NCBI RefSeq assembly: GCF_055900595.2 | Contig: NZ_CM148325.1 | DNA: 64,000 bases | Reading direction: 5' to 3' (one strand) | Shown: positions 44,902-49,049 of the stretch, one piece after another | How positions within the stretch are numbered: the first letter of the stretch is position 1 | Layout of the letters: the number at the start of each line of letters is the position of its first letter | The notes under the pieces: model-generated | Told to the model about the DNA's origin: nothing | Database searches by the model: none | What the model saw: the letters and a program-made list of their open reading frames with translations, nothing else | Made by a program: the position numbers and the translations under genes

Positions 44902-45813
44902 ATGCTGTGGTTCAAAAATTTAATGGTTTACCGTCTTAGCCGCGAGATTTCGCTGCGTGCAGAAGAGATGGAAAAACAGCTAGCCTCGATGGCATTTACC
45001 CCATGCGGCAGCCAGGACATGGCGAAGATGGGCTGGGTTCCTCCGATGGGATCGCACAGCGATGCGTTAACGCACGTTGCCAATGGTCAAATTGTTATCT
45101 GCGCGCGCAAAGAAGAAAAAATCCTCCCGTCTCCGGTGATTAAACAGGCGCTGGAAGCAAAAATCGCCAAGCTGGAAGCGGAACAGGCGCGCAAGCTGAA
45201 GAAAACCGAAAAAGATTCGCTGAAAGATGAAGTGCTGCACTCTCTTCTGCCGCGCGCTTTCAGCCGTTTCAGCCAAACCATGATGTGGATCGACACGGTA
45301 AACGGTTTGATTATGGTGGACTGCGCCAGTGCCAAAAAAGCAGAAGATACGCTGGCATTACTGCGTAAAAGCCTGGGGTCGTTACCGGTTGTACCATTGA
45401 GCATGGAAAACCCGATTGAACTGACGCTGACCGAATGGGTACGCTCTGGTAGTGCGGCACAAGGCTTCCAGCTGCTTGATGAAGCCGAACTGAAATCGTT
45501 GCTGGAAGATGGCGGCGTGATCCGCGCGAAGAAACAAGATTTGACCAGCGAAGAAATCACCAACCACATTGAAGCAGGAAAAGTGGTGACTAAACTGGCG
45601 CTCGACTGGCAGCAGCGCATTCAGTTTGTGATGTGCGACGATGGTTCACTCAAGCGTCTGAAGTTCTGCGACGAGCTGCGCGATCAAAACGAAGATATCG
45701 ACCGTGAAGATTTTGCCCAACGTTTTGATGCCGATTTCATCCTGATGACCGGTGAACTGGCAGCATTAATCCAAAACCTGATCGAAGGATTAGGTGGCGA
45801 AGCACAACGTTAA
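44902..45813 (+). CDS. rdgC: recombination-associated protein RdgC
   Basis: Start set to [16 protein letters not shown] (303 aa). Confidence 0.94.
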
Positions 45814-45830
45814 TTGCTGATTTGCCTTTA

Positions 45831-45869
45831 ATGCCGGATGCGACGCCTGCGGCGTCTTATCCGGCGTAC
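45831..45869. repeat. REP palindromic unit
   Basis: atgccggatgcgacgcctgcggcgtcttatccggcgtac. Confidence 0.8.
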
Positions 45870-46036
45870 GAATCCACACCAGGCATATAATCATTCGCTA
45901 CGGCGGGCAATAATTTTTAGCGCAGCAATATTATGCGTTTTACGCCGTAACTGATCCAACCGTCTCATCCCTATTCGCCTGTCAGCGGCACGCAGAATAT
46001 TCACTAACCCCCATTTATCGCTGGTAAATTGTTTCG

Positions 46037-46345
46037 TTAACAGCTCCGCTTTTGGGTATCAATATATTCACGCAATAAATCAGAAATTGAACAAATATCC
46101 GTCAGATAAGGATACCAGCAAGTTTCACCATGAAAATTACGCACTCCACCATTGCCTGCCATAAAGTCTTTTGGGTAATCCCAGATCACGTCTTTATCCA
46201 ACGTGATCCAATAACGCGGTAAATCGGTGCTTCCACCATTTTGGCTGCGCATGGGATAACGGGTACAGTGAATTTGCAGGTTGATCGTTGGCGTCAGTAA
46301 GTCATAAATCTCCCTCTGTAACTTGCTCCAGGGGCGTTGTGTCAT
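46037..46345 (-). CDS. small hypothetical cytoplasmic protein, translationally coupled to the upstream 762-aa gene
   Basis: 102 aa; start ATG overlaps the upstream stop (ATGA); GAGGA Shine-Dalgarno inside the upstream gene; no signal peptide or TM segment; several Cys/His/Trp. Confidence 0.6.
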
Positions 46346-48630
46346 TGTTTTTCCTCAAGCCGGTTACGCGCTTCACTGCGAATTTGCCGCGTTGCCCCGG
46401 TTTTCACTAAATCACGTAACTGCGAAAGATCGGGCTGATCGACAAATAAGATTAATGATGGATCCTCTTTTAACCACGCCGTTTTCACATCGGCAGCCAA
46501 CTGTGGATTATTAATAGCCAGCGCCCGATCCTGTGACTCAGTCAATGTCGTTAACAAAGAGGCTGGGGTATGTACATTGCGCAACGCCGTCTGCCGCAAA
46601 TGATCATTGTGACTTTTCAGCAATCCGCACCACCATTCATCATCTGATTTATCTTTTATCGTATCCAGCTCCGCAAAAATATCGCTTTCCTCATGATTCC
46701 AGCGGTGTAATCCTCTTTCACTTTGTCTACGGGTGCTATTTTTCATACTGACAACAGACAACGCCCAGTCAGAGTTAAAACGATACTGTTGATCGAGTTT
46801 GTTGATAATTCCGGAGGGTAAATCTTTATTATCAAATAACTGGTTTCGCATCCGATAGCGGTATTCAGCAGGTAAATAAACCAGTAAATCGATAGCATTA
46901 TTAAGCATCTCTTCGTCAATAATACCATTATCAATCAGCGCCAGCTGTACTTCGTAGGCTTGCTCTTGATCTTCTTGCCGTTTACTCATCATTAATTTTA
47001 AGGTGTGTTGCCATAATTGTTTCTTATACTCCAGAGGTAACAATTTATCGCGTGCCAGCTCATACCAGATGCTGGGAATGTCATGCTGATTCAGTAGATA
47101 ACTAATCACTTCCTTCGAGGTCAGATAACGCATGCCGTCACGTAAATTGTGCACATCTTCTTTTGCCAAAGTCAGTTGACGCGACTCCGGCAAAGCGACC
47201 AATAACGCCTTCACGATATTTTTATTTTCTTTATTATCCAGATACATTTGTTCTGCGATACGTTCAACATCCTCTGTCCTCAGGGTCGCTGACAGTTGGG
47301 TGATTTTTAGTTCAGTAAGCGTCCGGGCTAATGCTTGACGAACTTTCAGCGATTTATCTTTACTCAACAACACCGCTTGTTGTGCGGTTAAATCGGTTCC
47401 GGTAATTCTTTCGCGTAACTCCAGATCTTCGCTATTTATCAATTCATCAACCACTGCAGTTGGAACCAGCCAGGCGTAATCGTAATGGCTGATTAATGTC
47501 TTGCGCACACTGAGAAAAGGGCTTTGACTTAACGATACAACAATATCAGGAGAAAGATTATCCTGTCTGGCCTGCTCCAGCTGTACGCTCTCGACGGGTA
47601 CAGACATTAATTTTTTATTCACTTCGGCGGATATATTGCTGTTTTTAACCAGTCCTCTGGCAACAGCTTCATCTTTAATTAATTCATCGGTAAGCAAATG
47701 CATGTGTTGAGCAGGCCAGGACTGCGCCATTGATTCACGCGTCTGGTCATCGGGGTGCTGTAACAGTTGCAGCATAACGGCGGTTGACAAACTTTCTATA
47801 TGAGTCAGAAAACGTGCCACCAGTGGATCTTCATGCTTTATTTTATCCGCAAGGAAATTATCGAGTTTCCCCGTTTCAATCCATTTTAATTTCTCATTAA
47901 TTTCAGGAGCAGCTTTATCTCGAAAAAGAGGTAAACCCTGAACGATATTGTCTACGACGCTATCATAGTCAGGATACGCATTGGAAATATTATCGGTTTC
48001 GATTTCACTATGATCATAAAGATTAGGCGTCACCAGTGAATAGGCTTTTTGAATATTCTCGTCCCAGTTATATTCTTCACCGCTTTCATCTTCATTGATA
48101 TAAAACTCAGCTTTGATGACCTCAAATTGCGTTGCTTTATCGGAAACAATAATGCCTCGCGCGTTAATTCCTTTCATCACTTCAAAGTTGTGATCATTAT
48201 AATCAGCATAAACTAAACCTTTTGCTGTCATCTGCCCTTTGACATACGCGAAATCATGATTAATAAAGTTATCGACAATAACATTACCTAATACAATCAG
48301 ATGACCATTACCTGACAGATAATCATCATAATCGCCGGAAATCGTTAAATTACCGTTCACCACCAGTTTATGCTGATTGCTGAAGTTAGTGGGTAATGAT
48401 AGGTCACCATTATGATAATACCAGCGGATATTATCTTTTAGCATATAAGCAGCTTCCATACTATCGTTGGTTGCCGCTTTAACCACGTTGCGCTCATCTG
48501 CCGTCATAAGATGAAAGTCAGAGGTGATAAGGTCCTCGCTACTGATCCACTCTGTGGCACATGCATTGCCAGTCATAAAAAATACGACCATACAGATGAC
48601 CAATATATTAATTCTATTCATAATCTTCAC
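46342..48630 (-). CDS. large hypothetical exported protein: N-terminal beta-rich region plus C-terminal alpha-helical repeat region
   Basis: 762 aa; AT-rich; signal peptide (MKIMNRINILVICMVVFFMTGNACA); start may be GTG 48630 or ATG 48621; no recognisable catalytic motif. Confidence 0.65.
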   Translation of the reverse strand: MKIMNRINILVICMVVFFMTGNACATEWISSEDLITSDFHLMTADERNVVKAATNDSMEAAYMLKDNIRWYYHNGDLSLPTNFSNQHKLVVNGNLTISGDYDDYLSGNGHLIVLGNVIVDNFINHDFAYVKGQMTAKGLVYADYNDHNFEVMKGINARGIIVSDKATQFEVIKAEFYINEDESGEEYNWDENIQKAYSLVTPNLYDHSEIETDNISNAYPDYDSVVDNIVQGLPLFRDKAAPEINEKLKWIETGKLDNFLADKIKHEDPLVARFLTHIESLSTAVMLQLLQHPDDQTRESMAQSWPAQHMHLLTDELIKDEAVARGLVKNSNISAEVNKKLMSVPVESVQLEQARQDNLSPDIVVSLSQSPFLSVRKTLISHYDYAWLVPTAVVDELINSEDLELRERITGTDLTAQQAVLLSKDKSLKVRQALARTLTELKITQLSATLRTEDVERIAEQMYLDNKENKNIVKALLVALPESRQLTLAKEDVHNLRDGMRYLTSKEVISYLLNQHDIPSIWYELARDKLLPLEYKKQLWQHTLKLMMSKRQEDQEQAYEVQLALIDNGIIDEEMLNNAIDLLVYLPAEYRYRMRNQLFDNKDLPSGIINKLDQQYRFNSDWALSVVSMKNSTRRQSERGLHRWNHEESDIFAELDTIKDKSDDEWWCGLLKSHNDHLRQTALRNVHTPASLLTTLTESQDRALAINNPQLAADVKTAWLKEDPSLILFVDQPDLSQLRDLVKTGATRQIRSEARNRLEEKQ

Positions 48631-48764
48631 TGATATTTATATCAACCTTGATGAATTATGAATATATCGGAAATCGAAAAAATCGCAGCAAAGGAAATAT
48701 TATTATGGGTTAAAGAGAGGATATTTCAGAAAAATGCCCTCCCGTTCATGGGGAAGGCGAGGAA

Positions 48765-49049
48765 TTACAGATAGCGGCACAGATAAGAGGTGGGTTCGGC
48801 AACTTGCAGATGAAACTCGCTGTGACCGGGAACATTAAACACCGAACCGGCTTCATACACTTGCCAGTCGGTCGCGTCAGGCAGTAAAACATTCAGCGCG
48901 CCACTGATTACCGTCATCTCTTCCGGTTCAGCGGTGCTGAAGGTGTATTCGCCTTCAACCATAACACCTACGCTGGCGCGGCCAGTGCTACTGCTGGAAA
49001 AGCCGATCGATTTCACTTTGCCGGAAAAGTACTCATTACTTTGAAGCAT
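48765..49049 (-). CDS. ppnP: pyrimidine/purine nucleoside phosphorylase PpnP (YaiE)
   Basis: 94 aa; [17 protein letters not shown]. Confidence 0.94.

Follow-up and report, generated by a model that had tools for sequence, protein, structure and literature searches.

Between ppnP and rdgC, the 64,000-nucleotide stretch of DNA analysed here (hereafter the window) carries two overlapping genes, a large one for a protein with a signal-like N-terminus and a small one for a protein lacking such a signal. This arrangement raises the question of whether they act as a functional pair, as an initial annotation had suggested, or are independent occupants of a locus of which Escherichia coli K-12 retains a remnant. 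We consider it fairly probable that the interval is a decaying, low-G+C Escherichia islet (the ykiA islet) holding two independent, horizontally acquired genes, one for an exported binding protein and one for an orphan-immunity-type protein of the SF0329 family.

The ykiA islet and its remnant in K-12

The two minus-strand open reading frames were located at 46342..48630(-) and 46037..46345(-). They meet at a translational-coupling junction (46342..46356, minus strand) in which a GAGGA Shine-Dalgarno sequence (46352-46356) precedes the ATG of the small gene by a 6-nt spacer and the ORFs overlap by ATGA (46342-46345). The conservation of this ATGA coupling in Escherichia could still mean a lineage-specific functional link. 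The large ORF was confirmed, with a different start: RefSeq uses the ATG at 48621, giving 759 amino acids, not the GTG at 48630 that had given 762. Likewise, the description of the pair as uncharacterised held for function only, as both proteins are already annotated, as DUF2773 (PF10971) and SF0329 (PF25753/NF049912), respectively; a literature search on DUF2773, SF0329, PF25753 and DUF4304 found nothing relevant. The G+C content was 0.37-0.45 over positions 46400-48800 against about 0.50-0.55 in the flanks, and the two-gene unit has the appearance of a horizontal acquisition. The ancestral islet would have been a low-G+C, horizontally acquired element; nowhere but in Escherichia do its two genes lie side by side with coupled translation. 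Between the end of the SF0329 gene and the rdgC stop codon, a REP-type palindromic element was read from the sequence at 45830..45880 (strand not assigned), where the sole Rfam match, to the REP-derived naRNA4 (45830-45865), was sub-threshold.

Alignment of the interval against K-12 bore out the earlier statement that K-12 carries a remnant only, and supported the suggestion that the window holds the intact form of a degraded locus. K-12 ykiA lies at the same ppnP-rdgC locus with the same promoter region and reading frames and corresponds to the ~113 codons at the 3' end of the large gene, and K-12 YkiD (27 amino acids) consists of the first 11 and last 16 residues of SF0329, being the remnant of an in-frame deletion. 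K-12 has undergone two large deletions, the one in the large gene beginning exactly at its ATG in an alignment of K-12, O157 and E. whittamii, whereas the window retains the whole large gene (759 amino acids) and, but for a 1-bp frameshift, the entire small gene. The ppnP-rdgC interval is the full-length form of a locus surviving as ykiA/YkiD scraps in laboratory E. coli. O157:H7 is among the few lineages in which the islet persists intact, and intact alleles of the large gene are found in both O157:H7 and 2013C-4282.

The K-12 remnant also informs the translation and regulation of the intact genes. YkiD of K-12 has been confirmed by immunoblot as a 27-amino-acid protein (PMC6001520), and because it begins at the same ATG, translation of the small gene does initiate there in vivo. 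The ppnP-ykiA intergenic region (48622..48764, minus strand), which holds the promoter region of the unit, is nearly identical to that of K-12, and terminator-like and promoter-like sites were predicted within it, including a ppnP terminator at 48736-48758. The ykiA promoter of K-12 is activated by BglJ-RcsB (PMC3950696), a measurement made on the remnant, not on the intact gene. By extension from K-12, the large gene would be expressed from a promoter of its own, located downstream of that terminator and activated by BglJ-RcsB. The ykiA pseudogene, YkiD and the BglJ-RcsB-activated promoter of K-12 can accordingly be read as relics of one ancestral two-gene islet.

Sequence and predicted fold of the large protein

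The large gene (46342..48621, minus strand; stop codon TGA at 46342-46344) is an intact DUF2773-family gene, that is, a full-length ykiA, with RefSeq homologues of the same length of 759 amino acids and orthologues named 'DUF2773 domain-containing protein'. Pfam DUF2773 matched residues 679-759 over its full model (positions 1-81) with an i-Evalue of 7.5e-39. Comparison with O157, 2013C-4282 and E. whittamii gave dN/dS values of 0.12-0.19; judged from the sequences, the gene is intact in the window and under purifying selection. The number of relatives depended on the search, as a word-indexed search returned 6 clusters, an exhaustive profile search about 45 full-length homologues and a narrow-alignment profile scan of genome contigs only 3 loci.

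A Sec signal peptide was predicted for residues 1-22 (48556..48621, minus strand), with cleavage after A-C-A (MNRINILVICMVVFFMTGNACA|TEW), the call being made by eye and from conservation among homologues, not with a trained predictor. About 30 of 42 homologues share a hydrophobic N-terminus and an AxA-type site followed by a conserved [AG]x[ED]W, in keeping with the signal peptide initially described, and the AlphaFold2 (AF2) model has a low-pLDDT helix at residues 3-15. A lipoprotein signal was considered and rejected on the sequence, since the G-N-A preceding Cys21 misfits a lipobox.

The AF2 model of the large protein (pLDDT 90.8) consisted of the signal peptide, a bactofilin-like beta-helix and a long alpha-solenoid, and so reproduced the beta-rich N-terminal and helical-repeat C-terminal regions noted previously. 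The beta-helix domain spans about residues 65-176 (48094..48429, minus strand) and contains the conserved motifs GxYDDY and YNDxxFEV. The solenoid of short paired helices spans about residues 186-759 (46345..48066, minus strand) and includes LRV repeats at roughly residues 330-440 (47302-47634, minus strand) and, at its C-terminal end, the DUF2773 segment (46345-46587, minus strand). Assignment to the LRV proteins is based on both profile homology and fold: the family profile matched the LRV protein 1lrv_A with an E-value of 1.8e-12 over about 100 residues, the model has the short-helix solenoid, and Pfam LRV_2 gave a weak match in one homologue. The central solenoid thus shares with the Azotobacter vinelandii LRV protein (1lrv) and with HEAT-like alpha-solenoids the same short paired-helix repeat, but the protein of the window is exported, three times longer than 1lrv and carries an N-terminal beta-helix where 1lrv has an Fe-S cluster domain.

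The beta-helix forms a right-handed triangular core of about 100 residues, as is characteristic of bactofilins. No Pfam match to the bactofilin family was obtained, sequence identity to the bactofilins BacA (2n3d) and 6ria of Thermus was 9-16%, and other beta-helices (adhesins and autotransporter passengers) scored equal to or slightly above bactofilins, with worse rmsd. Bactofilins are cytoplasmic polymer formers, whereas the beta-helix here belongs to an exported protein and is joined to a solenoid; the signal peptide of this protein argues against a cytoplasmic location. The absence of a recognisable enzymatic motif noted at the outset was upheld, no enzyme or toxin domain being found in the large protein; an NCBIfam match to EstV lipase was discarded as spurious (15.7 bits against a cut-off of 300), and PDB sequence searches with the single proteins returned nothing useful. 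The default reading of a beta-helix joined to a solenoid in the predicted structure is a binding protein, and the large protein is probably one that is exported; passing through Sec and having no catalytic domain, it would bind something in the cell envelope.

A frameshifted SF0329 gene

The 102-amino-acid ORF, previously taken for a full gene, is truncated, a feature that had been overlooked; intact SF0329 proteins have 149-152 amino acids. The SF0329-family gene as a whole occupies 45891..46345 (minus strand) and is inactivated by a 1-bp deletion at 46054..46056 (minus strand), where the alignment shows CCC in place of the CCCC of intact alleles. The conserved C-terminal third runs on out of frame to 45891. 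The truncated ORF (46037..46345, minus strand) consequently ends before the last three helices of the fold, which follow the break in the SF0329 model (residues 114-121, 127-136 and 140-150), and is also missing the nearly invariant residues F107, D110, W112, D122, R123 and R124. Pfam PF25753 recognised SF0329 with an E-value of 4.8e-22. Against NCBIfam NF049912 the ORF of the window scored 51.8 bits, below the curated cut-off of 60 bits because of its truncation, while the intact O157 orthologue scored 93.7 bits. The score below the cut-off and the presence of both halves in two frames therefore identify the window copy as an SF0329 pseudogene.

The initial reading of the small protein, described as having no signal peptide, as cytoplasmic was supported. 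SF0329 has dN/dS values of 0.04-0.055; the family, made up of small cytoplasmic alpha/beta proteins, is strongly conserved even between phyla.

Independence of the two genes and the wider context of SF0329

The co-occurrence of the two genes bore on the question of pairing. By a check set beforehand, conservation of the small ORF does not follow that of the large gene: SF0329 is deleted beside an intact large gene in E. whittamii and Escherichia sp. E1V33, in an Escherichia-like contig (L024) SF0329 is intact and the large gene deleted, and in the window itself the large gene is intact while the small one is a pseudogene. Escherichia thus presents all combinations (both intact, large only, small only, both degraded). 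Among complete E. coli genomes, the SF0329 core was present in 920/5426 and the large gene in 446/5426. Outside Escherichia, to which the pairing is confined, the large protein is stand-alone, none of six homologues having an SF0329 neighbour, and 78 of 80 metagenomic SF0329 loci had no neighbouring gene for the large protein. Because SF0329 has been lost and retained separately from the large gene, the proposal of a functional pair is not supported; the two proteins are independent, being neither a toxin/immunity nor a secretion/chaperone pair.

The first of these readings, in which the large protein acts as a delivered effector or toxin against which the small cytoplasmic one gives cognate immunity, is suggested by the layout of contact-dependent and T6SS toxin-immunity pairs, where the gene for a large exported or secreted protein overlaps a small downstream gene whose product is cytoplasmic. 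The small gene does lie directly downstream on the same strand with an ATGA overlap, and the SF0329 family is placed among immunity genes elsewhere. However, the large protein has no recognisable toxin or enzymatic domain, the genes have been lost independently in both directions and an immunity gene has not been kept with the intact large gene in E. whittamii, in E1V33 or, given the frameshift, in the window. With the co-occurrence data contradicting it, we regard this reading as highly improbable, and a tempting but wrong annotation is removed from the locus. It is also very unlikely that SF0329 is a chaperone or accessory protein that helps the large protein to be folded, exported or modified in Escherichia. 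The translational coupling agrees with such a role, as does the shared promoter, and most E. coli genomes with the large gene probably hold SF0329 as well, to judge only from the totals (446 against 920). Yet two other Escherichia species and six unrelated contexts have an intact large gene and no SF0329, SF0329 is found on its own in about 474 E. coli genomes (again from the totals) and in nearly all other taxa, and a Sec signal peptide needs no dedicated chaperone.

The SF0329 family comprises 562 clusters of about 55-68% identity, with members in Bacteroidota, Bradymonadia, Zoogloeaceae and Leminorella. SF0329 lay within a co-directional run of small genes in 22 of the 38 loci with adequate flanks, and a tyrosine recombinase lay upstream in 9/34; in 12 loci, as many as 21 small genes in a row came after a Phage_integrase-family recombinase located upstream on the same strand. 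The arrays had a G+C content of 34-35% (recombinase 40%), and an intergenic motif, TAACAAACAGC...GCTGCCGGACATTA, recurred between cassettes. Neighbouring genes encoded SUKH, Imm9, Imm10, Imm33, Imm51, DUF4240, Macro and ADP-ribosylglycohydrolase proteins. These features fit the description of rAID-1, with its 5' tyrosine recombinase, co-directional small genes, G+C content of at most 41% and repetitive intergenic sequences (Ross et al., bioRxiv 10.1101/471110). The rAID-1 recombinase is itself defined by at least 44% identity to BF9343_RS08045, and the likeness drawn here is based on the other features. In contrast to rAID-1 genes, the Escherichia copy of SF0329 sits between the large gene and rdgC with neither array nor recombinase, and the family is outside the catalogued immunity families and conserved to a far higher degree than orphan immunity genes usually are. 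In about 85 loci, no cognate toxin turned up next to SF0329, the larger neighbours checked being housekeeping proteins (RtcB, ribonucleotide reductase, permeases) or immunity-type ones (SUFU, Imm33).

Since SF0329 recurs in recombinase-associated orphan-immunity arrays, an orphan immunity-type or otherwise protective role in the cytoplasm is the most likely one, and on this context SF0329 probably has such a role. The intact protein would protect against a toxin, a function that the 1-bp deletion would have abolished in the window. Its travel in orphan-immunity cassette arrays across phyla provides a testable lead for the family. Extending protection to both genes, the large periplasmic protein might counter an effector acting in the periplasm and SF0329 one acting in the cytoplasm. 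The array contexts of SF0329, the low G+C content and the patchy presence and repeated independent decay of the locus in Escherichia would suit such a two-gene immunity islet, and repeat proteins can act as immunity proteins in polymorphic toxin systems. It is nevertheless distinctly unlikely, as the large protein, at 759 amino acids, far exceeds the usual immunity proteins, matched no Imm or SUKH family in a Pfam scan and has homologues that stand alone among housekeeping genes with no arrays or toxins near.

A related proposal, fairly unlikely in our estimation, is that SF0329 is an uncatalogued protective family of unusual conservation and very wide transfer, giving immunity to some conserved toxin or acting as a single-gene defence, with the beta-helix/LRV protein as its periplasmic counterpart; if so, the ancestral ppnP-rdgC islet would have served interbacterial defence in two compartments and since been discarded by most modern E. 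coli. On balance it is also unlikely that SF0329 is a nucleic-acid-binding, regulatory or anti-phage cassette protein whose presence in immunity arrays reflects general cassette traffic, given that neither SF0329 nor the large protein matched PADLOC or PHROGs and that identifiable neighbours of SF0329 belong mostly to polymorphic-toxin immunity families.

Some observations on the orphan-immunity-type reading of SF0329 may be added. Conservation of the family (about 60% identity, dN/dS about 0.05) is unlike that of fast-evolving immunity proteins and counts against an immunity role, as does the fact that recombinase-linked cassette arrays also carry non-immunity genes. The C-terminal helices of SF0329 are rich in Arg and Lys and could instead bind nucleic acid.

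Layout of the locus and a frameshift in the SF0329 gene

The window contains, as described in the initial annotation, two minus-strand ORFs of 762 aa (46342..48630) and 102 aa (46037..46345) in the ORF listing that share an ATGA overlap (46342-46345), with a GAGGA motif on the same strand (46352-46356) six bases before the ATG of the small gene. The low G+C content of the unit was likewise borne out (0.37-0.45 versus about 0.50-0.55 in rdgC, mak, ppnP and aroM). It is flanked by rdgC (plus strand, ending at 45813) and ppnP (48765..49049, minus strand). RefSeq starts the orthologous large gene at the ATG equivalent to 48621, resulting in a 759-aa 'DUF2773 domain-containing protein'. A REP-type palindromic element (45830-45880) is located between the stop codons of the small gene and rdgC; the Rfam naRNA4 match at this position is sub-threshold (27.6 bits versus a gathering score of 59.5).

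The 102-aa ORF is truncated; the RefSeq orthologues, annotated 'SF0329 family protein', have 149-151 aa. The missing C-terminal portion, which carries three of the fold's five helices and many nearly invariant SF0329 residues, is encoded in a different frame (45891-46055) as the result of a 1-bp deletion at CCC 46054-46056, and the 102-aa product scores 51.8 bits against NCBIfam (cut-off 60) versus 93.7 for the intact protein. In the nearest strain, 2013C-4282, 99.7% identical across this region, both genes are intact; the lesion is therefore either strain-specific or a homopolymer sequencing error. Within the window, functional capacity is possible for the large gene only. SF0329 alleles of O157:H7 (L002 1699-1720; window ~45891-45915) have one more A in an adenine run close to the 3' end, which alters the last residues to ...ALKNYCPP and results in 149 instead of 151 aa.

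Pfam and NCBIfam already list both families as uncharacterised, and RefSeq annotates the locus; new here are this frameshift, an account of K-12 ykiA and YkiD as relics of the two genes, the large protein's beta-helix and LRV architecture, the independence of the two genes and the link of SF0329 to rAID-1-like arrays (recombinase-associated clusters of orphan immunity genes).

Remnants and decay in Escherichia

Comparison with K-12-type genomes upheld the statement in the initial annotation that K-12 retains only a short ykiA-type remnant. In these genomes a deletion extends exactly from the ATG of the large gene to about codon 645, leaving ykiA as 113 codons behind an almost unchanged promoter region. 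The SF0329 gene has undergone an in-frame deletion between two AGTTAC(A/G)G direct repeats, producing the 27-aa YkiD from its first 11 and last 16 codons (L003 1692-1775 compared with window 45891-46345); YkiD is thus a gene relic and not a dedicated small-protein gene. Synthesis of YkiD was confirmed by tagging and immunoblotting (PMC6001520), which shows that translation does begin at the coupled start codon in vivo. BglJ-RcsB activates the ykiA promoter (PMC3950696), and the conserved intergenic sequence suggests that this activation may extend to the intact large gene.

The N-terminal 1.9 kb of the large gene were found in 446 of 5426 complete E. coli genomes, many of the listed carriers being O157:H7, and the SF0329 core in 920 of the 5426. 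At this ppnP-rdgC locus, E. whittamii and Escherichia sp. E1V33 retain the large gene intact but have lost all of SF0329 except its last ~20 codons, an event independent of that in K-12 because the left end points differ. The reverse state was seen in an Escherichia-like metagenomic contig (L024; order ppnP, large-gene remnant, SF0329, rdgC), in which a 151-aa SF0329 is intact and the large gene is cut to its last ~56 codons, while CH458-type E. coli have a frameshifted SF0329 and no large gene. In E. coli CUWW06 (H42, NZ_CP182139.1 1255833-1257144) an IS1B element splits the DUF2773 gene, adding another independent way in which the locus has decayed. In genomes that have kept them, both genes are under purifying selection, with dN/dS values of 0.12-0.19 (large gene) and 0.04-0.055 (SF0329), compared with 0.008 for rdgC and 0.11 for aroM.

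The large protein and its relation to SF0329

A word-based search found the large protein almost only in Escherichia (6 clusters); an exhaustive profile search returned about 45 full-length representatives (735-820 aa, 18-49% identity), besides thousands of repeat-only matches. In about 30 of 42 aligned homologues the N-terminus is hydrophobic and runs up to an AxA-type site, after which comes a conserved [AG]x[ED]W. This motif directly follows the predicted signal-peptide cleavage site (window residues 23-25, about 48547-48555); its Trp25 is invariant in a 5-sequence alignment only and not in the 42-sequence alignment. An AlphaFold2 model based on the homologue alignment (pLDDT 90.8) begins with a detached N-terminal helix representing the signal peptide; a beta-helix (about residues 65-176) follows, and then an unbroken solenoid of short helix pairs from residue 186 to 759. 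The family profile matches an Azotobacter LRV protein (E 1.8e-12), and the only Pfam match is DUF2773, covering the C-terminal 81 residues. Pfam, NCBIfam, PADLOC, PHROGs and PDB sequence searches revealed no catalytic or toxin family. Judged by its architecture, the protein most likely has a non-enzymatic binding role in the envelope after Sec export. The beta-helix bears conserved GxYDDY and YNDxxFEV motifs, which could mark a metal site or a binding site.

Outside the Escherichia locus, six homologues stand alone in neighbourhoods unrelated to it, none of them (0/6) near SF0329. A metagenome scan for SF0329 gave 211 relatives; of the 80 loci fetched, the large protein adjoins SF0329 in two, both E. 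coli-like. The pairing is specific to Escherichia and joins two horizontally acquired genes whose distributions are independent of each other. The initial annotation's toxin/immunity reading fails on two defining features: the large protein lacks a toxin domain, and an intact 'toxin' does not require the 'immunity' gene. These co-occurrence data also weaken the secreted-protein/chaperone reading. A 49%-identical homologue (L009 5001-7241) occupies a different chromosomal site in another organism, with enterobacterial-looking neighbours, sprT/endA on one side and an MFS sugar transporter/metK on the other, which suggests that the large gene was acquired more than once, or moved.

The SF0329 family and its arrays

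At 90% identity SF0329 resolves into 562 clusters, typically sharing 55-68% identity with the E. coli protein, with named members in Shigella, Leminorella, Prevotellaceae, Bradymonadia and Zoogloeaceae and host loci of 33 to 67% G+C. SF0329 lies in co-directional runs of at least three small genes in 22 of the 38 loci with 1 kb or more of flank on each side, and a closely related tyrosine recombinase was present upstream on the same strand in 9 of the 34 loci with 3 kb or more of upstream sequence (twelve loci in all). The arrays have a G+C content of 34% and a repeated TAACAAACAGC...GCTGCCGGACATTA element 3' of each gene. These features fit the published description of rAID-1 clusters, namely an XerD-like recombinase, co-directional genes at <=41% G+C and integron-like intergenic repeats (10.1101/471110), and the long arrays of genes of 100-230 aa behind a tyrosine recombinase (L015 2866-12483, L016 1775-8756 and L017) look like clusters of this type. 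L015 and L016 are otherwise near-identical loci with shuffled cassette order. Their recombinases are 99.7% identical; in all three arrays the intergenic repeats are attC-like and most cassettes lack a Pfam family.

The neighbours of SF0329 are hyper-diverse (154 clusters from 198 neighbours), and those with any Pfam match belong mostly to polymorphic-toxin immunity families (SUKH/SMI1_KNR4, SUKH_5/6, Imm9, Imm10, Imm33, Imm51 and SUFU), with DUF4240, Macro and ADP-ribosylglycohydrolase also represented. This context makes orphan-immunity-type protection the most likely role of SF0329, although its unusual conservation and the lack of a known toxin partner argue against it; no toxin gene directly adjoined SF0329 in the examined loci.

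In Leminorella grimontii (L005 3238-6471), SF0329 is the last gene of a same-strand run of small genes (HTH_35, two unknowns, WGR+DUF4240 and a 109-aa unknown) located between the tol-pal/cpoB genes and aroG, which looks like another enterobacterial islet of immunity-like genes. In a Bradymonadia MAG (L006 1-5356), genes encoding a TerB_N/TerB_C protein, a BrxC_BrxD-family ATPase and a DEAD-box helicase, possibly a defence cluster, lie about 650 bp upstream of a solitary SF0329.
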